Positions 3,445 through 63,008 of a DNA stretch of 64,000 nucleotides are shown in pieces. Below the pieces are notes generated by a model. The model was not told where the DNA came from. It did not search any database and saw only the letters and a list, made by a program, of their open reading frames with translations. Source of the DNA: Patescibacteria group bacterium (GTDB lineage: Bacteria > Patescibacteriota > Patescibacteriia > UBA10025 > JAHIVO01); NCBI GenBank assembly GCA_028718605.1, contig JAQULM010000001.1, positions 519,006 through 583,005 on the forward strand, read 5' to 3'. Position numbers and translations under genes: made by a program. Within the stretch, counting starts at the first letter, position 1, and every line of letters starts with the position of its first letter.

Positions 3445-4266
3445 ATGGACGCTAGGACGACCCAATCGTATACAGAACGCGCCAAGCAAGCAACCAACCC
3501 GGTTGCGAAGCAGCTTTTCGAACTGATGGAACAGAAAAAAACGAACCTCTGCCTCGCGAACGACGAATCTGATGTTGAAAAATTCCTCGGCCATATCGAA
3601 CAGCTGGGCGAATACCTCGCGGTTTTAAAAATGCACGTGGACATCCTGGAAAACTTCACCCCGGGCGTGATTGTAAAAATCCGCTCGCTCGCGAAAAAAC
3701 ACAACTTCCTTATTTTCGAGGACCGGAAATTCGCCGACATCGGCAATACCGTATCAATGCAGTACGAAAAAGGTGTATATAAAATTGCCGAGTGGGCGCA
3801 CCTCACCAATTGCCATGTAATCCCCGGCCCTGGCATTATTGAGGGCTTAAAAACTGTTGCGGACAAGCAAACAGAACCGCGCGGCCTGATACTCCTTGCC
3901 CAGATGAGTTCAAAAGGCAATCTCGCCACTGACGAATACACCGCACAAGCCGTAACAATGGCTGAACACTACCCTGGTTTTATTGTCGGATTTATTGGTA
4001 ACGGCGGTAAAGTGAAGGAGCTAAAAAAACTGTCCGCTATCGCCTCACCTCAATTTATTATTCTAACGCCGGGCGTGAACCTGACATCAACGGGAGATAA
4101 GCTCGGCCAGCAATACACGACACCTGCGGATGTCATCGCCGCCGGCGCTGACGTGATAATCGTCGGCCGCGGCATCTACAGCGCATCCGACCCTATCAAA
4201 GCAGCGGAACAGTACCGTGCCGCCGGCTGGGAAGCATACTTAAAAAGAATAACCAATGCCCAATAA
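3445..4266 (+). CDS. pyrF: orotidine 5'-phosphate decarboxylase (long form)
   Basis: 273 aa, OMPDC-like (…LCLANDESD…FEDRKFADIGNTV…). Confidence 0.8.
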   Translation: MDARTTQSYTERAKQATNPVAKQLFELMEQKKTNLCLANDESDVEKFLGHIEQLGEYLAVLKMHVDILENFTPGVIVKIRSLAKKHNFLIFEDRKFADIGNTVSMQYEKGVYKIAEWAHLTNCHVIPGPGIIEGLKTVADKQTEPRGLILLAQMSSKGNLATDEYTAQAVTMAEHYPGFIVGFIGNGGKVKELKKLSAIASPQFIILTPGVNLTSTGDKLGQQYTTPADVIAAGADVIIVGRGIYSASDPIKAAEQYRAAGWEAYLKRITNAQ

Positions 4267-4374: not shown

Positions 4375-5310
4375 ATGAAACACTGCCTCCACCTCAAAGA
4401 CTGGCAAGCCGACGAAATACGCGCTGTTATCGAGCGCGCGATGGAGATTAAAAAAAACCCTGCTGAGCACGGCGACGTACTGAAAAACAAGACGCTCATC
4501 ATGCTGTTCCAAAAGGGATCAACGCGCACCCGGCTCTCGTTTGAAGCGGGAATGACGCAGCTCGGCGGGCATGGTATCTTCATTGACCAAAAAACAACGC
4601 AGTTCTCGTTGACTGATTTCCGGGACGAGATACGGGCAGTGATGCGGTTCGGCGATGTCCTGATGTTCCGCGCTTTAAAAGCCGCGGACGTGCTCACCGC
4701 AGCCTCGTTCAACCAGATACCGGTCATCGACGCGTGCTCAGAAAAGTACCACCCCTGCCAGGCATTGGGCGACCTCCTGACAATGGCTGAGCATTCAGGC
4801 GGATTAGATAAAATTAAAAAAGTCGTCTGGCTCGGCATTGAAAATAACGTTTCAAACACGCTGAAACTCGCATGCGCTAAGCTCGGGATTGACGTATGGA
4901 TCGCCGCGCCAAAAGCGCACCAACCGAGCATTGATCCAGAATTGAACAAGATGGCTGATGCCACGGGTAAAGTTCATACAACGCTCGACCTCAAAGAGGC
5001 AATGGAGGGTGCGGACTACGTGCATACCGACACCTGGGTCGATATGGAATTCTTCGACAATGGCAAGGTAAAGCCGAGCTTCCAGGAAGAGTTTGACGCG
5101 CGGGTCGCGATGTTCAAGCCGTACCAGCTCAACGCCGCCCTGCTCGAAAAGCACAATCCCAACGCGAAAATCATGCACTGCATGCCCTGCCATATCGGCT
5201 ATGAAATAACGTCCGATGCTATCAACCACCCGAATTCAGTCATCTTCGACCAGGCAGAGAACCGGATGCACATCCAAAAAGCGATCATCTTGCATCTGCT
5301 CGGGAAATAA
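4375..5310 (+). CDS. carbamoyltransferase of the ATCase/OTCase family with ornithine-carbamoyltransferase-like motifs
   Basis: STRTR carbamoyl-phosphate motif, HPCQALGDL, DTWVDM, HCMPCH (OTC-like HCLP), and an OTCase-type C-terminal tail FDQAENRMHIQKAI. It sits where pyrB would be expected. Confidence 0.7.
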   Translation: MKHCLHLKDWQADEIRAVIERAMEIKKNPAEHGDVLKNKTLIMLFQKGSTRTRLSFEAGMTQLGGHGIFIDQKTTQFSLTDFRDEIRAVMRFGDVLMFRALKAADVLTAASFNQIPVIDACSEKYHPCQALGDLLTMAEHSGGLDKIKKVVWLGIENNVSNTLKLACAKLGIDVWIAAPKAHQPSIDPELNKMADATGKVHTTLDLKEAMEGADYVHTDTWVDMEFFDNGKVKPSFQEEFDARVAMFKPYQLNAALLEKHNPNAKIMHCMPCHIGYEITSDAINHPNSVIFDQAENRMHIQKAIILHLLGK

Positions 5311-5668
5311 TATCCACGCTCCCTATCCTGCAAAATACTCGAAAATGATTAAGCACCAAAAAGGTTTTTAGAATCGCGGGGTCCAGGGGCTTCTTAATCA
5401 AAATTCCTTCTTCCCCGCCCATATAAAAAATATTGCTGAAATTGAGCGAGGAGGAATGGTCCGCCCTTTGGGCGAGACCGCGGTGTCCTGTTCGAGCGTA
5501 CGAGCGTGCCCATGGGCACGCGAGAAGCGAGTTACACCGCGGAATGACGACGAGCCAATTTCAGACAATTTTTTATCCTGGGCGGAATCTCTTTTCTGTC
5601 ACTTTTCTTGATTCGAAGAAAAGTGACAAAGCTACTCTTGGCGCCAAGAAAAGTGGCAATATAATCAC

Positions 5669-5735
5669 TTTTGACCAGGCTGAAAACCGGATGCACATCC
5701 AGAAGTCAATTATCCTGCAGCTGCTCGGGAAATAG
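5669..5735 (+). repeat. direct repeat copy 2 of the last ~66 nt of the carbamoyltransferase gene (native copy 5243-5310)
   Basis: TTTGACCAGGCTGAAAACCGGATGCACATCCAGAAGTCAATTATCCTGCAGCTGCTCGGGAAATAG compared with the native TTCGACCAGGCAGAGAACCGGATGCACATCCAAAAAGCGATCATCTTGCATCTGCTCGGGAAATAA. Ends in a stop codon and encodes …FDQAENRMHIQKSIILQLLGK. Confidence 0.8.
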
Positions 5736-5884
5736 CACGAACGAAACCTCGTCAAAATCAATCTGATAAACTCGGTTGTTTTGGCTTACCCTTGACAAAT
5801 AAAATAATCTCTGCTAATATTTCTTGTCATTACGCAAACAATGGCTCTTTGATTCTCTTCACACTACCCCTCGGGGAGGTATAT

Positions 5885-6394
5885 ATGTCCAGATCTCGCA
5901 TCACCTTAGTTATGGGAATGTTTATGCTGCTCACGGCCTCCATCCTCAACTACGGATGCAGTGAACAGCCGCAAGCACGGATCGAAGAAGAGGGGCTGCT
6001 CTGCCCGATCGACACAAACCTCAAAGCTACAATCAACAGGTATTTCACTCAAAACCCCATCCCGGCCGCCACTCGAAACGACACCACCTGGATCAGGGCA
6101 ATCGTCCTTAAAAAGGATCGTATTTTCACCACGTCCATGGACTTAGCTCTCGTCCTCTACTGTGAGAATGGGGAGCTAAGGAACTTGACTCCGAGCGGTT
6201 TTGCGCTCCCGGTGATAATCGACATGAACACACCGGTTGGCAGTGAAGTCTGGTTCTTCGATAAGAGGAAGATACGTGATGAGTATATTCACGATTCGGA
6301 AATCAGACTAATTAAGGAAGATGCTGTCTGTATCCCTGATCGCGTATTCACTGGGCCACCCCCAGCGTCACCAACAGCCGATTCGACCCTCTAG
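5885..6394 (+). CDS. hypothetical secreted protein / lipoprotein-like, carried on the island between repeat copies 2 and 3
   Basis: GGGGAGG RBS then ATG at 5885; N-terminal signal peptide MSRSRITLVMGMFMLLTASILNYGC; no recognisable domain. Confidence 0.45.
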   Translation: MSRSRITLVMGMFMLLTASILNYGCSEQPQARIEEEGLLCPIDTNLKATINRYFTQNPIPAATRNDTTWIRAIVLKKDRIFTTSMDLALVLYCENGELRNLTPSGFALPVIIDMNTPVGSEVWFFDKRKIRDEYIHDSEIRLIKEDAVCIPDRVFTGPPPASPTADSTL

Positions 6395-6420
6395 TATCGC
6401 TCCTATCAGAAATCTCCCTG

Positions 6421-6451
6421 CCTCCCGGCTTACTACAAGTCGGGAGGTTTT
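6421..6451 (+). terminator. rho-independent terminator
   Basis: CCTCCCG-gcttactacaagt-CGGGAGG hairpin followed by TTTTCGTTT, directly after the 5885..6394 CDS. Confidence 0.5.
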
Positions 6452-6454
6452 CGT

Positions 6455-6520
6455 TTCGACCAGGCAGAGAACCGGATGCATATTCAAAAAGCGATCATCC
6501 TCCATCTACTCGGAACGTAG
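6455..6520 (+). repeat. direct repeat copy 3 of the carbamoyltransferase 3' end
   Basis: TTCGACCAGGCAGAGAACCGGATGCATATTCAAAAAGCGATCATCCTCCATCTACTCGGAACGTAG, ending in a stop codon. Confidence 0.8.
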
Positions 6521-6698
6521 GGGGTGCATACAAGGACCACGCAATGCCAGACAGCTACCCTTGGCTGCCTTCGGGCCTGGTTTTTGATTTGAAAAAAATA
6601 CCTAATATGGTAAAATATCCCCATATAGAGGGCCTGAACCCTCTCTCCATTTTTAAATCCCGTATTGTTCCGCTGCATCCCTTTAATCCGCACCAATC

Positions 6699-9365
6699 AT
6701 GTATCTCCAAAAACTAGTAATCCAGGGCTTCAAATCATTCGCAAACAAAAGCGAGTTGGAATTTACCCCCGGCGTTACCGCAATCGTCGGCCCGAACGGT
6801 TCCGGAAAATCGAATATCGCCGATTCAGTCCGGTGGGTCTTGGGCGAGCAGAGCCTCAAGACGCTCCGCGGCAAGAAATCCGAGGACGTGATTTTCGCAG
6901 GCTCTGACAAGAAAACCAGGCTCGGGTACTGCCAGGTTGATTTGCATTTGAATAATGAGGACCGTACGGCACCCGTCGACTACCAGGAAATCGTGATCTC
7001 GCGTAAAGTGTACCGTGACGGCGAGGGGGAATATTTCATTAATAAAAACCGCGTCCGGCTCCAAGATATACTGATGCTGCTCGCAAAATCAAACTTTGGC
7101 CAGCGTTCCTACAGCATCATCAGCCAGGGAACGGTCGACCTGTTCCTCGCGGCCACGCCGCTCCAGCGCAAGGAATACTTTGATGAAGCGGCTGGCGTGC
7201 GGCAATTCCAGATCAAAAAAGAGCAGGCAGAGCATAAACTAGCCCTAACGAAGGACAATTTGTACCAGGCAGACCTCCTTACACAGGAAATCGAGCCACG
7301 TTTGCGTTCGCTGACGCGGCAGGTGCGCAGGCTCGAGCGCCGCGAAGAGGTAACGAAAGAACTGAAAGAACTCCAGCATACGTACTACGGGGGTTTGTGG
7401 CACGATTTAAAAAATAAACGTGAGCATGAACAGCAGCAATACAACCTCGCGGAACTGAAACAGCATGAAGCGGAAACCGCCCTGCAGGAAATCCAAAACA
7501 ACATGCAGCAGCTTGCGCTCGGCTCGACGCGCCAGGAAGAATTCCAGCAGCTGCAGCGCGAGTATGATACGGTGATCACCCGAAAAAACGCTCTCCTGAA
7601 AGACCAGGCAGTGCTCAAGGGCAGGACGGAGGCTGACCGAGAACAACGCGGCGAATTCGACCTGGTATGGCTCGAACGAAAACAGGAACAGCTTGCACAC
7701 GAAACCAACGCACTTGCAACAAGTATCAAAGAATTTAAAACAGAAGAAGAACGGCACACCGACCAACTGAAGGTGAAGGAACGTGAGCTGAAAGAGCAAG
7801 ATATGCAGCATGTCGCCCTCTCCAATAAACTCCGGATGGCGAAAGAAAAGCTGCAGCAGAAAAAATCTATCGCGCTCCCTGACCTCGCGCGTGAAATCGA
7901 GGATATTTATAACCGATTTAACGGCCTCCTGGAAAAAATTAACGCCGCTGCCACCATCGAGGAGGTTAAAGTCCTCCGCGCTGACCTTAAAACACTCGTG
8001 ACCGAACTCGCCCAGCTGAATCACCGCCTCGGGGGCTCGAATGCAGGTGACCCCCGTGATGTGATCGAATTGCAGGATGCAATTGCCGAACTCCTAAGTG
8101 CGAAAGACGCACTTCTCACTACGATCAACGATTTTCGCGTAAAAATCCAAGTATCCCAGGAACGCGTCTCCCTCAACCAACGCCAACTTCAATCCGTCGA
8201 ACAAGAGCGCGAAAAGGTAAAAAATGAGCTTCAGCGTCTTACCACACGGATCTCGGCATCGGAGCGCGCGGCTAACATTTTAAAGGAAGAACAACAATTA
8301 AACCAACAAATCAAGCAAATCGACTCCTCACTCGCCGATATCAACCGCAAACTCGAGAAATTCAACCATGAAGAACAGAAGAAAAAAGAGGAAGTATTTG
8401 CGCTCCAGACAACCTTCTCAAAAAAGCAGGAAGAACTCAATCGCATCACAGCGGGATTAAACGATATCCGAGTAGAAATCGCCAAGGTCGAAACAAAACA
8501 GGAAGATATCGAACGGGAAATGGTCGATGAGCTGGCTGACGATGAACGCAACAGCATTTTCCAGCTTAAAAACCCTCCGGCACCGCAACCGCCCCTGTTC
8601 CAGGATATACAGAAGCTGAAACACCACCTCGAGCTGATCGGCGGCATTGATCCCCAGGTCAGCAAAGAGTACGAGGAAACCCAGAAGCGTTTCGACTTCC
8701 TGACGCACCAGAGCACTGACCTGCGAAAAGCCATCGAGGACCTGGAAGAGGCGATTGAAAGCTTAGACGAAACGATTAAAAAACAATTCAGTAAAGCATT
8801 CGAACAAATCAATAAGCAATTTACCGAATACTTTAAAGTGCTGTTCAATGGAGGCAACGCAACGCTCACGCTCGTAAAAGAAGAGCCGCGCTCGCCTGAA
8901 ACAGACGAAGCCGACGGGGAAGACGGCGAGGACGTTGACGAGGCGGAATCCAAGCCTGCGGCCGTGCCAGAACCGAAACCAATTTTGCATAAAGAAAAAA
9001 TTATTACTGGCATTGACGTGCATGCGACGCCGCCGGGGAAACGGCTGCGAGGCATCAGCATGCTCTCAGGCGGGGAGCGGGCGCTGACGTCCATCGCTCT
9101 TATCTGTGCAATCATCCACAATAACCCGTCGCCATTCGTTATCCTGGACGAGGTCGACGCAGCGCTCGATGAATCGAATTCAATCCGGTTCGCTTCGATC
9201 GTCGAACGGCTCTCGAAGCGTTCGCAGTTTATCGTCATCACCCACAACAGGGCGACGATGAACAAAGCCCGGATTCTCTACGGGGTTACCATGGGCGATG
9301 ACGGCGTATCCAAACTCCTGTCTATCAACATCCAGGAAGCGGAAAAAGTCATCGCGGAAGCCTAA
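6699..9365 (+). CDS. smc: chromosome segregation protein SMC (short, 888 aa, no obvious hinge domain)
   Basis: N-terminal Walker A (GPNGSGKSN). C-terminal LSGGERALTSIAL…ILDEVDAALDE…FIVITHN signature/Walker B/D-loop. Long coiled-coil middle. Confidence 0.85.
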   Translation: MYLQKLVIQGFKSFANKSELEFTPGVTAIVGPNGSGKSNIADSVRWVLGEQSLKTLRGKKSEDVIFAGSDKKTRLGYCQVDLHLNNEDRTAPVDYQEIVISRKVYRDGEGEYFINKNRVRLQDILMLLAKSNFGQRSYSIISQGTVDLFLAATPLQRKEYFDEAAGVRQFQIKKEQAEHKLALTKDNLYQADLLTQEIEPRLRSLTRQVRRLERREEVTKELKELQHTYYGGLWHDLKNKREHEQQQYNLAELKQHEAETALQEIQNNMQQLALGSTRQEEFQQLQREYDTVITRKNALLKDQAVLKGRTEADREQRGEFDLVWLERKQEQLAHETNALATSIKEFKTEEERHTDQLKVKERELKEQDMQHVALSNKLRMAKEKLQQKKSIALPDLAREIEDIYNRFNGLLEKINAAATIEEVKVLRADLKTLVTELAQLNHRLGGSNAGDPRDVIELQDAIAELLSAKDALLTTINDFRVKIQVSQERVSLNQRQLQSVEQEREKVKNELQRLTTRISASERAANILKEEQQLNQQIKQIDSSLADINRKLEKFNHEEQKKKEEVFALQTTFSKKQEELNRITAGLNDIRVEIAKVETKQEDIEREMVDELADDERNSIFQLKNPPAPQPPLFQDIQKLKHHLELIGGIDPQVSKEYEETQKRFDFLTHQSTDLRKAIEDLEEAIESLDETIKKQFSKAFEQINKQFTEYFKVLFNGGNATLTLVKEEPRSPETDEADGEDGEDVDEAESKPAAVPEPKPILHKEKIITGIDVHATPPGKRLRGISMLSGGERALTSIALICAIIHNNPSPFVILDEVDAALDESNSIRFASIVERLSKRSQFIVITHNRATMNKARILYGVTMGDDGVSKLLSINIQEAEKVIAEA

Positions 9366-12979: not shown

Positions 12980-13700
12980 GGTTTTAAAAATTCTGCAAAT
13001 GCCGTAGGCATTTTGCCGAGGTAGCTCCCCGTCATTCGACGGGGCAGGCAGTGGTAGAGTCCCGTATTTATGCCGAGGAATAATATGCCGAGGTAGCTCA
13101 GTGGTAGAGCGAAGGACTGAAAATCCTTGCGTCGCCAGTCCGATTCTGGCCCTCGGCATAAATACGGGATAAACTCCGGACTGAAAATGCCGATTTTCTC
13201 TGCGAGCCATGCGAGCAGACAGAAAATCGAGCATCCCGAGTGCAACGAGGGATCTTCTCCTTGCGTCGCCAGTCCGATTCTGGCCCTCGGCATCTGCGGA
13301 GATTTTTTTAAAGTCGAGGTAGCGAAGTGGGCCGAGACCACGAGTGAAGCAAACTGCTTCGCTTCACGAGGAGTCGAGGCGGGCGAGACGATGCGGGAAC
13401 CACCGTCGAGCCCCGGAAGAGCGAAGGACTGAAAATGCCGATTTTCTCTGCGAGCCATGCGAGCAGACAGAAAATCGAGCATCCCGAGTGCAACGAGGGA
13501 TCTCGTCGCCAGGGAGCTTGCCCTGAGCGAAGCCGAAGGGATTCTTGAAATCAATAGTTCAACCAAATGGTGAAATCCGCCGCAGCTTCGCGAAGGCGGA
13601 TGGCCCTCGGCATCTTCGTGGGATAAACTCCGGACTAAAAAAATAACAAGCGTGAAACATTGGTGAATGCGACGCACGCTTGAAAAAACACCCCAAAAAT
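12980..13700 (+). repeat. mosaic of tRNA-Phe fragments and duplicated inserts surrounding one intact tRNA-Phe
   Basis: A 5' fragment GCCGAGGTAGCTC…AGTGGTAGAG split by a 22-nt hairpin insert (13015-13076). A 3' half copy TCCTTGCGTCGCCAGTCCGATTCTGGCCCTCGGCA (13258-13292). TGGCCCTCGGCA again at ~13611. An identical 78-nt repeat GGACTGAAAATGCCGATTTTCTCTGCGAGCCATGCGAGCAGACAGAAAATCGAGCATCCCGAGTGCAACGAGGGATCT at 13178-13255 and 13426-13503. GGGATAAACTCCGGACT repeated after the tRNA copies. Confidence 0.6.
13087..13158 (+). tRNA. tRNA-Phe (anticodon GAA); unusual C at position 55 of the T-loop (TCCGATT); no encoded CCA
   Basis: GCCGAGGTAGCTCAGTGGTAGAGCGAAGGACTGAAAATCCTTGCGTCGCCAGTCCGATTCTGGCCCTCGGCA. 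Acceptor, D, anticodon and T stems all pair. Confidence 0.7.
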
Positions 13701-18614: not shown

Positions 18615-18813
18615 GTAAGTAACACATTACATCATTTGGCAGACACTCCTGAGTAGGTAAGCCACCGCAACAGGAGTCGAACGGTCACGAGCGATACGAG
18701 GCGCAGCCGAAGGGGAGCGACAAACAATGCGACCAGAAGGAGCATTGTTTGGTGACCAGGACAACGAGGACGCCCGAGGGCGGACGAGGCGAAACTCCCC
18801 TTACCCGCTTGTA
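18615..18813 (+). repeat. tRNA-3'-end-tagged structured element, copy G1
   Basis: Contains CAACAGGAGTCGAACGGTCAC…CAAACAATGC-gaccagaagga-GCATTGTTTG…GTGACCAGGAC… and ends with ACTCCCCTTACCCGCTTGTA, a copy of the tRNA-Gly T-loop to 3' end plus 5 flank nt. Confidence 0.7.
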
Positions 18814-18969
18814 GACCAGTCGTTGGCAAAATTTCTCAATAATTAAATCAGTACAACAGGAGTCGAAGGGCAGCAGAGAGACAAGCGCTCGGCGCGAAGA
18901 CGAACGCCGATGGATGCGACTCAAAGGAGCATTCATCGCTGCCCAGGACGCGACTCCCCTTACCCGCTC
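18814..18969 (+). repeat. tRNA-3'-end-tagged structured element, copy G2 (tandem to G1)
   Basis: CAACAGGAGTCGAAGGGCAG…CGATGGATGC-gactcaaagga-GCATTCATCG-CTGCCCAGGACGCGACTCCCCTTACCCGCT. Confidence 0.7.
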
Positions 18970-18992
18970 CGGGCCGATTAACCTTCGATAAA

Positions 18993-20724: not shown

Positions 20725-21663
20725 TCATTTAATTTCTTTAAGGAATTGCGCTGCGAGGGTAACTGTATCAACAGAGGAACTGTAGAAATCCTTCCACACA
20801 ACGACTATATTAGCGTCATTGAACACGGCCCGCTGCACCTCGCGTATCGTATCACCACCAGCAACGGCGACGGTGATATTATAACTCCCTCGGATCTGCT
20901 TGATCTGATAATACGGGATTTGTTTTTCTTTCGAGAACTCGGTCTCGTCGACGCCACGGTGCAAAACCACAACATCCGGAAGCGCCCTGAGCTGGCGAAG
21001 GAGCATATGCGGGCTTTCTACATTCATCATGTCGACCATTGAATCAAGCCCGTGCTGCTTGCATGCCGCGATAAACCGGTCGATTGTTTCTACGCGCGCG
21101 ACCCCAAGGCACGTAATCCCGTTCGCGCCTGCCGTTGCGGCCATTTCAACCTCCCGCTCTGCCAGATCAGCCGTTTTTGCATCGGCGACAACGTACGCAC
21201 CCGGCCAGGCCATCGCACGGACAGTGCGGATTGCCTCAGCTCCGTATATTTTTATCAGCGGTGTGCCCGCCTCGAGGATGATCCGGTCGGATGGCGGAAG
21301 ACGGCTTATAATCGAGCGCGCATCATCGAGCGTGCTATTGAGCGCAATTTGCAAATACTGCTTGCTTTTCTGTAGTTTTGCGGTGGGAACTGGCACAAGC
21401 GGCATTTGCGCTGTTTTCTGGGACAGCGAACTGAACGCCAGTGCAATCGGCGTCTTTAGGGGCGTTGCTGCCGGTTGTGTGCTTGTTGGTGCGCCTTTCG
21501 GGGCATGGCGTGCTTGCTGAGAAATTTTTTCGAGGAATTGCAGGAGGGGTGATCCGGCCGGTGCTCCTTTCTTTTTCCGGAATATCATCCGCACTATAAA
21601 AAAGAAGATTGCAAAGTTAAAAATCGTCGTAAATACCTCAAAAACTTTAATAGGAGAAGCCAT
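20725..21663 (-). CDS. 3-hexulose-6-phosphate synthase-like (OMPDC/KGPDC-family) protein with an N-terminal TM helix and ~90-aa linker (alternative start ~21405)
   Basis: C-terminal domain KQYLQIALN…ILEAGTPLI…VVADAKTADLA…GANGITCLGVA matches the HPS/KGPDC ribulose-phosphate-binding barrel. Confidence 0.55.
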   Translation of the reverse strand: MASPIKVFEVFTTIFNFAIFFFIVRMIFRKKKGAPAGSPLLQFLEKISQQARHAPKGAPTSTQPAATPLKTPIALAFSSLSQKTAQMPLVPVPTAKLQKSKQYLQIALNSTLDDARSIISRLPPSDRIILEAGTPLIKIYGAEAIRTVRAMAWPGAYVVADAKTADLAEREVEMAATAGANGITCLGVARVETIDRFIAACKQHGLDSMVDMMNVESPHMLLRQLRALPDVVVLHRGVDETEFSKEKQIPYYQIKQIRGSYNITVAVAGGDTIREVQRAVFNDANIVVVWKDFYSSSVDTVTLAAQFLKEIK

Positions 21664-21666
21664 GGC

Positions 21667-22473
21667 TTAGATGACAACCTTTAAAAAACTCTCTGCAAGC
21701 TCCGCCATCTTGTGGGGCTCCTCATAGAATGGGCGCCACACAATGGCGATGTCGGCATCATTGAACACCGTACTCGTTACCTCGCGGAATGTTTCGCATC
21801 CAGCCACTGAAATCGTGACTGGATACGTCCCCTTGATCCGGCGTATCATGTGCAGCGGGATGCTGCGCTCACGGTTCAGATCATGCTCATCAACTCCGCG
21901 GTGAAGCACGACAATATCCGGAAGCGGGCGAAGCTTCTGCAGCACCTCAAACGGAAATTCGACATTCATCATGTCAACCGTTGAATCGATGCCTGCTGCC
22001 GCGCAGTGCTTGATGAATTCACTAATGGTTTCGATGGGCGCCAAACCAAGGCAGGTCGCGGCTGAAGCACCTGCCGCTGCTGCCGCCGCGACTTCTGTAT
22101 ATCCCCGATCCATGCATTTCAGGTCTGCAACGACGTACCCGGGCCTGCCAAGCTTCGCGGACCAACACTGGTACACCATCCCAATTCCGCTGCTGCCGTA
22201 CACCTTTACGAAAGGTGTGCCGACTTCAATAATTATCCTATCCGATGGGGGCAGGGATGCTATCATCTGCCGTACCTCCGGAAGGGAGCGATTCAAGGCT
22301 ATCTGGAGATAACATTTTCGCTTTTCAAGTCGCATAAAGAAGTATTTTGACAACTGCCCATTAGCATACCTGTAGTATACCCAATTCGCCTCAGGGCGAA
22401 CAGGTAACCCGTAAACGCGCGTTTTTGTCCCGATTTCGTCCTTCGATAATACCCGAATCCTAAAGGTTGACAT
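21667..22473 (-). CDS. 3-hexulose-6-phosphate synthase-like protein, tandem paralog
   Basis: KCYLQIALN…IIEVGTPFV…VVADLKCMD…GASAATCLGLA. Same family as 20725..21663, with a ~50-aa N-terminal extension. Confidence 0.55.
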   Translation of the reverse strand: MSTFRIRVLSKDEIGTKTRVYGLPVRPEANWVYYRYANGQLSKYFFMRLEKRKCYLQIALNRSLPEVRQMIASLPPSDRIIIEVGTPFVKVYGSSGIGMVYQCWSAKLGRPGYVVADLKCMDRGYTEVAAAAAAGASAATCLGLAPIETISEFIKHCAAAGIDSTVDMMNVEFPFEVLQKLRPLPDIVVLHRGVDEHDLNRERSIPLHMIRRIKGTYPVTISVAGCETFREVTSTVFNDADIAIVWRPFYEEPHKMAELAESFLKVVI

Positions 22474-50385: not shown

Positions 50386-51294
50386 ATGGCTGCACCACTA
50401 CAACAATCACTCGACGGCTTCCTTGGGCGCCTGTCGCAAGAAAACAGCGTCGGAAATGCGACCATCCGCAACTACCGTTTCTACCTGTCACGATTTTTAA
50501 CTTGGCGGGCGTTTCCTGAACCGTCAGCGATCACTGGCGAAGCAATCGATGAATTCCGGCACTACCTTGCGGGGATCCGGAACCAACGCGGTGAACTGAT
50601 GAAACAGACAACGCAGAATTACCACCTGATCGCGCTCCGTGCATTCCTCGACTACCTCAATGCCCAGGGCATGGCAGTGCCCCGAGGCCATGACGTCAAG
50701 CTGAACCGCATTGAACAGCGGCACCAAGTAACGATTACCGACACAGATCTCGAACGCTTGCTGGAAGCGCCGCTGAATATGAAAAACCCCGGCATCGTCC
50801 AAAAGCGGGACAAAGCCCTCCTCGAACTGCTCTTCAGCACAGGATTGAAAGTATCAGAACTCTCGAACCTGCGCCGCGACCACGCACGATTGGAAGAAGA
50901 CGAGATGCCGATCCGCGGCACCGGAAGCAGAATGCGGTCAGTGCCGTTCACCCACCATGCGAAATTCTGGATCAAGGAATACCTCGATGTGCGTACCGAT
51001 GCGCTCCCGGCGCTTTTTATCCGCCATGATCGCGCGAAACGCCAGCAGCTCACGAGCGTACAGCCGGATGAATACAAACTGACGCCCCGGACGATCCAGC
51101 GCATTGTAAAAAAATACGCGGCATCATCCGGCCTCCCGCGCTCTACAACCCCTGAATCGCTCCGGCAAGCGTTCGCGTCATTCCTCCTGCGGCGCGGCGA
51201 CGATATCGAAACGGTGCAAAAAACACTCGGCCACGTTTCGCTGACGACGACGAAACTGTACGCAAAATCCCACGCCTCGCCCCCCGTGGATTGA
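50386..51294 (+). CDS. tyrosine site-specific recombinase (XerC/XerD / phage-integrase family)
   Basis: N-terminal SAM-like core-binding domain. C-terminal catalytic residues R…HxxR…Y (…RHDRAKR…LGHVSLTTTKLYAKS). Immediately upstream of tRNA-Arg. Confidence 0.75.
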   Translation: MAAPLQQSLDGFLGRLSQENSVGNATIRNYRFYLSRFLTWRAFPEPSAITGEAIDEFRHYLAGIRNQRGELMKQTTQNYHLIALRAFLDYLNAQGMAVPRGHDVKLNRIEQRHQVTITDTDLERLLEAPLNMKNPGIVQKRDKALLELLFSTGLKVSELSNLRRDHARLEEDEMPIRGTGSRMRSVPFTHHAKFWIKEYLDVRTDALPALFIRHDRAKRQQLTSVQPDEYKLTPRTIQRIVKKYAASSGLPRSTTPESLRQAFASFLLRRGDDIETVQKTLGHVSLTTTKLYAKSHASPPVD

Positions 51295-52812: not shown

Positions 52813-52984
52813 CAAAGGCCTCCTCACACAGAGGAGGTTTTTGCGTAGCAGCCATGCCGCTCAACACGCACGGATTCGAAGGGCAGGAGTGAATCAAGCG
52901 TGGAACGCGCAGATGAACGACAACGGATGCGACCCTTCGGGAGCATTCGTTGCTGCCCAGGACCCGAATCCCTCTGCGCGCACC
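52813..52984 (+). repeat. tRNA-3'-end-tagged structured element, copy K1 (same family as G1/G2)
   Basis: …GGATTCGAAGGGCAGG…CAACGGATGC-gacccttcggga-GCATTCGTTG-CTGCCCAGGACCCGAATCCCTCTGCGCGCACCA. The last 21 nt copy the tRNA-Lys 3' end. The terminator hairpin is also duplicated (52816-52843 and 52987-53012). Confidence 0.7.
52816..52843 (+). terminator. rho-independent terminator after tRNA-Lys
   Basis: GGCCTCCTC-acaca-GAGGAGG + TTTTT. Confidence 0.5.
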
Positions 52985-53083
52985 ACAAAGGCCTCCTCAC
53001 ACAGAGGAAGTTTTTGCAGTGTTCTATAGGAACAATCTGAGGAATGGAGTGTTTTTGTTGTAGAAAAACGCTATACTATCTAT

Positions 53084-62263: not shown

Positions 62264-62446
62264 TTACACGATGACGCTTCTTTCAAAACTTACAGCCTGA
62301 TTTATTTCCCAAGGATTGGTAAATCGTTGCGGGAGTTGAAGCTGACCCGAACGCGCCGACAGGCGATGAAGTGAGGGCAGCGGGCTGCGGAGGAGAGCAA
62401 GGAGCGCTGCGACGGGCTCGGGGGAGCAGAACTCCCGCCCTGGGCA
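62264..62446 (+). repeat. tRNA-3'-end-tagged structured element, copy L1 (family 2)
   Basis: …GCGGGAGTTGAAGCTGACCCGAACGCGCCGACAGGCGATGAAGTGAGGGCAGCGGGCTGCGGAGGAG…GCAGAACTCCCGCCCTGGGCA. The 5' arm GCGGGAGTTGAA is the exact antisense of the tRNA-Leu TTCAACTCCCGC. The last 17 nt copy the tRNA 3' end. Confidence 0.7.
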
Positions 62447-62643: not shown

Positions 62644-62813
62644 GAACAGGCTAGCTAGTACATAGGTAGTCTGTTTTGGGACGAAAGCGTCTACAATCCA
62701 AGAGAATTGAAGCCGACCCGAACGCGCCGACAGGCGATGAAGTGAGGGCGGCCGGCTCCGGAGGAGCGAAGTGAAAACGACGCGGGGGAGGAGAATTCCC
62801 ATTGGCCACCCCA
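62644..62813 (+). repeat. tRNA-3'-end-tagged structured element, copy H1 (family 2)
   Basis: …GAGAATTGAAGCCGACCCGAACGCGCCGACAGGCGATGAAGTGAGGGCGGCCGGCTCCGGAGGAGCG…GAGAATTCCCATTGGCCACCCCA. The 5' arm GAATTGAA is antisense to the tRNA-His TTCAATTC. The last 20 nt copy the tRNA 3' end including CCA. Confidence 0.7.
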
Positions 62814-63008
62814 GAAAAAGTTGCGGCACCCGTTTAGGGTGGCGGAACTTTTTCTGATAGGGATAAAAAAATGCGGATGTCATCTGCTCTTCAAAGGGTA
62901 CGCGCACCAGTGAGGAATACTGGCTGCATACGGCCCTTGAGGAAACAGACTTCATCCGCAGTTGCTGTTCGGTTCAATACAGGTTAGGTTCCCAGACTAA
63001 TAAACTGC

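Follow-up and report, generated by a model that had tools for sequence, protein, structure and literature searches.

Organisation of the OTCase locus

The subject of this analysis is the 3' end of a gene for ornithine carbamoyltransferase (OTCase) in a metagenome-assembled genome (MAG) of an uncultured member of the Patescibacteria, within a 64,000-nt stretch of contig JAQULM010000001.1 that was analysed as a whole and is referred to below as the window. The final 21 codons of this gene and its stop codon (66 nt) are present three times, in direct orientation, within 1.3 kb. The gene order is pyrE - pyrF - OTCase - island 1 - tail copy 2 - island 2 - tail copy 3 - smc, and the features of the locus, in window coordinates, are as follows.

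3445-4266: pyrF
4375..5310, + strand: intact OTCase gene, 311 aa, the insertion target
5245..5310, + strand: tail copy 1, FDQAENRMHIQKAIILHLLGK and stop, the working last 21 codons with TAA
5311..5669, no strand: island 1, 359 bp, non-coding and rich in palindromes
5670..5735, + strand: tail copy 2, FDQAENRMHIQKSIILQLLGK and stop, displaced and unused, ending in TAG
5736..6454, + strand: island 2, 719 bp, a self-contained transcription unit
6455..6520, + strand: tail copy 3, FDQAENRMHIQKAIILHLLGT and stop, displaced and unused, ending in TAG
6581..6698, + strand: native smc promoter and leader, where homology to the OTCase-smc spacer of a relative resumes
6699-9365: smc

The OTCase protein matched the Pfam domains OTCace_N and OTCace, scored above the family cut-off of NCBIfam TIGR00658 and was 100% identical to an NCBI 'Patescibacteria group bacterium' MAG protein encoded on a 651-kb contig; after this identical entry of its own, the next-best OTCase in the protein database was at most 82% identical. 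Two independent Logan assemblies, obtained from other sequencing runs, were 100% identical to the window across positions 5000-6800 (1,801 bp, including all three copies), and the arrangement was the same in all three assemblies that contain the OTCase protein. The triple-tail structure is thus real and no accident of assembly, and the three copies with their stop codons lay where the original prediction, made from this DNA alone, had reported them.

Divergence of the three tail copies

The tail sequence starts with FDQAENRMHIQK and runs to the stop codon. The right edge of the similarity was exactly the stop codon and the left edge was the same Phe codon for both downstream copies, with a weaker match (8/12) extending 12 nt further left of this codon in copy 2 only. 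Both visible junctions coincided within 10 nt or less in the gene. Over 66 nt, copies 1 and 2 differed at 11 positions (83% identity), copies 1 and 3 at 9 (86%) and copies 2 and 3 at 16 (76%), identities far above chance for stretches of this length. The differences within the 63 coding nucleotides were distributed as follows.

Copies 1 and 2: 10 differences, 8 at third positions, 2 amino-acid changes
Copies 1 and 3: 8 differences, 6 at third positions, 1 amino-acid change
Copies 2 and 3: 16 differences, 14 at third positions, 3 amino-acid changes

Pseudo-copies that decay in place are expected to differ equally at all codon positions. For the unused pair, copies 2 and 3, the third-position excess had a binomial P=1.2e-5. 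When substitutions were placed at random in 20,000 trials, amino-acid changes were never as few as in this pair; for each of the other two pairs the corresponding frequency was about 1 in 10,000. Identity among the copies (77-90% over the first 60 nt) was in the same range as that to the tails of the best genus-level relatives (78-87%). As the differences are concentrated on third codon positions, each tail must have diverged as the translated end of a functional OTCase, in separate lineages. The divergence had earlier been described as scattered and not adenine-specific; the latter was correct, whereas its specificity for third codon positions had gone unremarked. A diversity-generating mechanism was also considered and was ruled out because the changes are silent third-position changes; no reverse transcriptase was found nearby.

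The insert flanks are thus direct repeats of the 3' end of the target gene, as are the attL and attR sites of integrative elements, and the third-position bias and a divergence equal to that of other genera point to replacement ends of foreign origin by which the gene was kept intact. The term 'target-site duplication', used in the original prediction, is therefore wrong for these copies, which are replacement tails, 76-86% identical and of different lineage origin. No hidden OTCase-derived sequence was found in the islands when the intervening DNA was compared with the gene. Copy 3 is followed by a weak hairpin and a T-run and then by the conserved smc promoter; it is best read as the original tail.

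Comparison with related loci

The nearest syntenic relative, L001 (82% protein identity), has the order pyrE-pyrF-OTCase-smc with a spacer of 158 bp (6937-7094) and no islands, and thus offers an empty site, at genus-level distance; positions 6581-6655 of the window are homologous to its positions 7008-7085 (smc promoter and leader; local alignment, p=0.008). That the islands are insertions relative to related genomes was in this way confirmed. No second tail was found in 38 genome loci, nor in 115 metagenome loci scanned with the coding pattern of the tail, and no relative carried three copies.

Other relatives have different contents in the same spacer. That of L174 (5072-5380) encodes a 102-aa membrane protein and that of L172 (5005-5529) a 174-aa lipoprotein-like open reading frame (ORF), both without tail repeats, while in L173 synteny was lost. 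The L172 ORF was tried as a homologue of the island-2 lipoprotein and rejected, the similarity not being significant. In L042 (274-1086), a short contig that ends before any smc position is visible, the gene directly after the OTCase tail encodes a protein homologous to the island-2 lipoprotein (41-43% identity), and the next one a membrane protein of the L174 type. The lipoprotein gene of L042 has a promoter and a positionally homologous terminator around it, and the succession of copy 2, spacer, lipoprotein gene and terminator in the window is colinear with the L042 chromosome. A terminator of L042 and L175, GGTCATCTAYGACC, resembles the start of the tail (14/17); the resemblance was judged coincidental, this terminator aligning positionally with that of the lipoprotein gene in the window. 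No significant decayed tail remnant was found 3' of OTCase in L001, L172, L173, L174 or L042. From these gene contents, the OTCase-smc spacer is a variable spot in the clade.

A search of IMG/VR for an isolated OTCase tail, as a candidate attP, gave no matches with the exact tail pattern, and the hits of the looser pattern DQAENRxH were confined to helicase and terminase motifs and a single full-length OTCase. Outside the same population no island DNA was found, and relatives sharing an attP were not among the loci recovered. The one isolated tail among the loci scanned was in L060 (48-329, - strand), an unrelated soil or freshwater contig with a 93-aa ORF that is NIF3-like at its N-terminus and ends in the 34 C-terminal residues of an OTCase; no OTCase gene lies upstream of it. 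The fusion may have been left by a rearrangement or be due to chimeric assembly, and was set aside as it comes from an unrelated organism and is fused to a NIF3-like fragment.

Island 1

No gene was called in island 1 in the independent assemblies, in agreement with its earlier description as non-coding, and no Pfam match was obtained except through the attached tail. The palindrome, the long-range stem and the hairpin with a gattcg loop that had been reported were all recovered, and a further inverted pair lies at the right-hand junction (none of these has a strand).

5415..5585: imperfect palindrome, 171 nt, with 30-nt outer arms that are 73% complementary, enclosing the 10-bp ACCGCGGTGT/ACACCGCGG stem
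5504-5521: perfect 18-bp palindrome GCGTGCCCATGGGCACGC, inside that stem
5597..5628: perfect inverted repeat TGTCACTTTTCTT-gattcg-AAGAAAAGTGACA, 13-bp arms and 6-bp spacer
5646..5675: second inverted pair AAGAAAAGTGGC-aatata-ATCACTTTTGAC, 6-bp spacer, right arm formed by the start of copy 2

A suggestion that island 1 be sought as a structured RNA found no support: searches of Rfam with the islands and the whole window, at gathering and at permissive thresholds, returned only tRNAs and 16S. The fold of 5415-5585 had z=-5.5 and that of the other strand z=-4.4, and because both strands fold about equally well this points to a palindrome at the level of DNA rather than a strand-specific RNA.

The right end of the island is marked by the motif AAGAAAAGTGRC, which occurs 3 times in 60 bp against an expectation of 0.48 per 64 kb, a fourth and degenerate copy being the first bases of tail copy 2. 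The four copies form two inverted pairs with 6-bp spacers, at 5597-5628 and 5646-5675; the latter marks the junction between island 1 and the older tail and appeared as a hairpin in the fold of 5590-5690 (z=-3.8). Such paired-repeat geometry would be what is usually seen where a dimeric recombinase or repressor binds, and 5597-5628 is a candidate protein-binding or recombination site. No copies of island 1 were found elsewhere in the window or in loci L001-L171, and its palindromes had no matches in IMG/VR. The base composition of the islands was not atypical.

Island 2 and its lipoprotein family

Island 2 carries a signal-peptide protein gene with its own ribosome-binding site and terminator, as had been stated, and in addition a promoter and a lipoprotein signal.

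5792-5820, + strand: promoter TTGACA-17-TAATAT
5885-6394, + strand: lipoprotein gene, 169 aa, with a GGAGG ribosome-binding site and a lipoprotein signal peptide
6420-6448: 12-pair terminator

The protein belongs to a family of ~150-aa lipoproteins with 11 members at 27-45% identity. No family was found for it in PHROGs, Pfam or NCBIfam, and no relatives in IMG/VR. Its AlphaFold model was confident, with a pLDDT (predicted local distance difference test) of 84.5, and a fold search with this model against the PDB and BFVD gave no match below E=0.09. Elsewhere, members of the family adjoin tig, tsaD, mraY or groES, and two settings are phage-like (one with QueD and FolE, the other with a TROVE protein), with runs of small unannotated ORFs. 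Its varied surroundings mark the gene as a wandering accessory gene.

Distant homologues of the island-2 lipoprotein in phage-like gene runs were seen in L044 (1-3540) and in L046-L049. One of the distant homologues adjoins genes for QueD and GTP cyclohydrolase, and another, on a contig of 139 kb, lies amid many small unannotated ORFs, with a TROVE/Ro-like gene in the vicinity.

tRNA-linked repeats and the Xer-like recombinase

A parallel between the OTCase locus and elements linked to tRNA genes had been drawn in the original prediction and is borne out by the window, where 5/11 tRNA genes have repeated 3' ends that start in the T-loop. Repeated tRNA 3' ends with this starting point are a classic integrase signature. 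At OTCase and at the tRNA genes alike, an inverted copy of the first bases of the repeat lies just upstream of the repeated 3' end, with which the junction can form a hairpin closing on the repeat. There is no sequence in common between island 1 and the tRNA-linked inserts, which lie within the following regions.

18615-18971: tRNA-linked insert
52845-53017: tRNA-linked insert
62264-62446: tRNA-linked insert
62644-62815: tRNA-linked insert

These inserts lie behind tRNA-Gly(tcc), tRNA-Lys, tRNA-Leu(gag) and tRNA-His and are 120-181 bp long. At the end of each, the last 17-31 nt of its tRNA, from the T-loop onwards, are repeated with 100% identity, and at its start stands an inverted copy of the T-loop and T-stem, so that the insert folds into a long hairpin, closed by a stem that differs from tRNA to tRNA. 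The insert cores are common to different tRNAs (Gly and Lys 76%, Leu and His 92%); the inserts matched no Rfam family and the cores were absent from the IMG/VR search. In the region 13014-13641, tRNA-Phe is surrounded by its own pseudo-copies. One is a 5' fragment into which a 22-nt hairpin is inserted, another is a 3' copy whose anticodon loop has a 76-nt insert, and a third, nearly full-length, is interrupted in the D-loop, the anticodon loop and the T-loop; the anticodon-loop insert recurs with 100% identity in two of the copies (13178-13255 and 13426-13503). The tRNA-linked hairpin inserts are the more unusual objects of the window and deserve a study of their own.

One Xer-type tyrosine recombinase was found in the window, as follows.

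50386-51291, + strand: Xer-type tyrosine recombinase, 302 aa, immediately upstream of tRNA-Arg(tct)

In NCBIfam it came closest to XerA, XerD and XerC, each match lying below the cut-off, and no repeat of a tRNA-Arg fragment was found near it.

The window also contains two adjacent, diverged paralogues of the OMP-decarboxylase family (312 and 268 aa; 20725-22473, - strand), which share a 102-nt stretch that is 72% identical and are additional to the pyrF gene at 3445-4266.

Origin of the triple-tail structure

It is very probable that foreign DNA was inserted serially at this locus, each insertion bringing a replacement tail with it. As to the agent, the explanation that we favour, to which we would give about an even chance, is that site-specific integrative elements or prophages inserted one after the other at the OTCase tail, of which remnants without an integrase are now left. 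We set out from what is shown, namely repeated tails that diverged in a coding manner, a relative whose site is empty, and junctions that coincide; from these we infer a recombinase, the order in which the pieces arrived and that larger elements have decayed. Foreign DNA would have been inserted twice in succession at one point ~66 nt before the OTCase stop codon, each incoming piece beginning inside OTCase, carrying its own 21-codon tail and joining just before the tail of the recipient. In each event the gene would go on functioning with the new tail as its end, and the older one would be shifted downstream, unused. Copy 3 would then be the original tail, copy 2 with island 2 the first arrival and copy 1 with island 1 the last. 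The most likely agent would be a tyrosine-type recombinase of elements that have the OTCase tail as their attachment site and a replacement tail in their attP. One remnant would be a non-coding end, whose clustered inverted repeats may be binding sites for a recombinase or regulator, and the other a lipoprotein gene of the 'moron' type.

Site-specific integration is favoured because the positions of the two independent junctions agree to within 10 nt or less, because the inverted repeats with 6-bp spacers form a significant cluster right at the copy-2 junction, and because 5/11 tRNA genes of the window have repeated 3' ends that start in the T-loop. The wandering lipoprotein family, with its two phage-like contexts, was also counted for such an element.

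Several observations weigh against this explanation. No recombinase gene was found in the islands (ORFs of 5311-6454, domain search), and 45 kb separate the locus from the sole tyrosine recombinase seen in the window, which is Xer-like. The islands are tiny (425 and 785 bp including one tail each), so that both elements must be supposed to have been deleted almost entirely. The left flanks of copies 2 and 3 are unrelated and show no shared attP arm, and neither IMG/VR nor the metagenome loci yielded a phage or element in which the OTCase tail stands isolated. In addition, the colinearity of copy 2 and island 2 with L042 fits an import of chromosomal DNA equally well.

Such an import is a serious rival, which we nevertheless consider rather unlikely. 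It supposes that chromosomal DNA of relatives entered by one-sided homologous recombination, that is, by homology-facilitated illegitimate recombination after DNA uptake. A fragment consisting of OTCase body, donor tail and donor downstream DNA would recombine by a homologous crossover inside OTCase, while its far end would join illegitimately just before the tail of the recipient; two such events would stack the tails without any mobile element. The process is known from naturally transformable bacteria, it yields an identical final structure with the same coding-type divergence, and it needs no integrase, none being present. The match of copy 2 and island 2 to L042 extends over tail, promoter, lipoprotein homologue and terminator, and the spacers of L172, L174 and L001 hold differing small genes or none, without tail repeats. 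The T-rich junctions (TTTTCG next to TTTCGACC and CAC next to TTTTGACC) could be microhomology joins. However, two illegitimate joins within 10 nt or less would be a coincidence of roughly 1-5%, if any site from the crossover to the smc promoter is allowed, and neither the inverted-repeat cluster at the copy-2 junction nor the T-loop-bounded tRNA repeats would be explained. No mosaic or breakpoint signal was seen in the OTCase body, the relatives being too distant to reveal one.

The claim of site-specific integration made in the original prediction thus stands in part: both junctions lying at the same codon favours a site-specific process, whereas the proposed 'cassette capture' is speculative, one-sided recombination giving the same structure. 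The word 'active' was not supported: the three assemblies are identical, the islands contain no recombinase, and searches of viral, genome and metagenome collections yielded neither a related island nor an isolated OTCase tail; there is no evidence that the locus is still active.

Cassette capture in its own right would require active mini-cassettes without an integrase, each consisting of a replacement 3' end and a hairpin attachment site and moved in trans by a chromosomal tyrosine recombinase, and we regard it as improbable. By this account the Xer-like recombinase would insert mini-elements, with stems that mimic their target, at the 3' ends of essential genes, namely five tRNAs and OTCase, and so build cassette arrays in an integron-like capture at gene ends, which we likewise doubt strongly. 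Its best support is the inverted copy of the repeat start upstream of each repeated 3' end, with the hairpin closing on the repeat. The units are small (~130-200 bp at the tRNAs, 425 and 785 bp at OTCase), insert cores are common to different tRNAs, an Xer/integron-integrase-like recombinase is present in the window, and known analogues use folded hairpin sites with host or dedicated tyrosine recombinases. Against this, the three assemblies show no variation, island 1 and the tRNA-linked inserts share no sequence, and no further copies were found in any of the loci compared or in IMG/VR. Moreover, the recombinase resembles an ordinary Xer protein unlinked to any site, and the stems are just 5-9 bp.

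A local tandem duplication, arising through slippage or unequal crossing-over, after which the copies drifted neutrally and small unrelated pieces were inserted, would account for direct tandem repeats within 1.3 kb. It can be excluded on codon-position grounds, and we consider it highly improbable, because of the third-position bias and because the copies are as distant from one another as orthologues of different genera: the 14/16 third-position differences and 3 amino-acid changes of the unused copies are incompatible with neutral decay in place, and the intervening DNA is unlike the gene. A codon-position test on leftover gene ends can thus separate imported replacement tails from local duplication. 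Least probable of all is an assembly artefact in which strain variants of the gene end were wrongly chained, since, while the genome is metagenome-assembled, two further assemblies from different runs carry the same 1,801 bp with all three copies, which are separated by unique DNA including a complete gene.

The locus shows that readable scars of repeated horizontal insertion can be found at a single spot of a core metabolic gene even in a Patescibacteria genome of ~0.65 Mb. If site-specific integration is the true explanation, the OTCase tail would be a previously unreported attachment site in Patescibacteria, and the OTCase-smc spacer a small hot spot for accessory surface-protein genes. The understanding of integrative elements in general is unchanged.

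Comparison with known systems

The likeness to CTX phage attP(+)/XerCD and to integron attC/IntI is one of geometry only. These systems also have imperfect palindromes beside the recombination point, integrative mobile elements exploiting Xer (IMEX) lack an integrase, and tandem arrays are formed. They act, however, at dif or attI and repeat a few bases rather than a 66-nt gene end, and no dif-like site, IntI or attI was found at the OTCase locus. With regard to IMEX, the window has an Xer-like recombinase, the target is the coding end of a gene and no dif site was identified. An integron cassette array was considered and rejected, as there is no adjacent integrase, island 2 has its own promoter and the repeat is a 66-nt coding tail, whereas integron cassettes are promoterless, end in attC and have a 7-bp core as their sole repeat.

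Homology-facilitated illegitimate recombination in natural transformation resembles the OTCase locus in having one homologous anchor and one illegitimate join, with the same stacking of tails. It differs in not being site-specific, so that coincident junctions would be unexpected.

The tycheposons of Prochlorococcus integrate serially, pushing older elements inward with partial target copies between them, and very small genomes contain their degenerate remnants as well as segments of cargo alone (bioRxiv 10.1101/2020.12.28.424599). The serial insertions separated by partial target copies, and the remnants in a small genome, are alike at OTCase; in contrast, the targets of tycheposons are tRNA and tmRNA genes and they have recognisable tyrosine recombinases, whereas here the target is a protein-coding gene and no recombinase is present.

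Remnants without an integrase that retain attL and attR from the 3' end of the target are known as cis-mobilizable elements (CIMEs), and serial integration gives arrays of the form element-att-element-att (PMC5704250). By the definition given there, att sites kept without genes for integration or transfer, the OTCase inserts resemble CIMEs. They are alike to those of the ICESt1/ICESt3 family (ICE, integrative and conjugative element) at the 3' end of fda, and to streptococcal IMEs (integrative and mobilizable elements), by being att-flanked, integrase-less and arranged in tandem. They differ in that no parent ICE or IME and no transfer genes or relics of them were found, and in that the remnants are much smaller.

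A prophage in icd supplies an alternative end of the gene with mostly silent differences, and the displaced original end stays at the far junction. In Escherichia coli, icd is the integration site of phage 21, e14 and NC-SV (PMC12803456). At both loci the element inserts inside the coding 3' end and leaves the gene intact. At icd a prophage with its integrase lies between the copies, whereas here there are 359 and 719 bp without an integrase, and the target gene and the host phylum (Patescibacteria) also differ. The kind of footprint at OTCase, tandem accretion at the 3' end of a gene with replacement tails, is thus a known one; the phylum and the target gene are what make it unusual.

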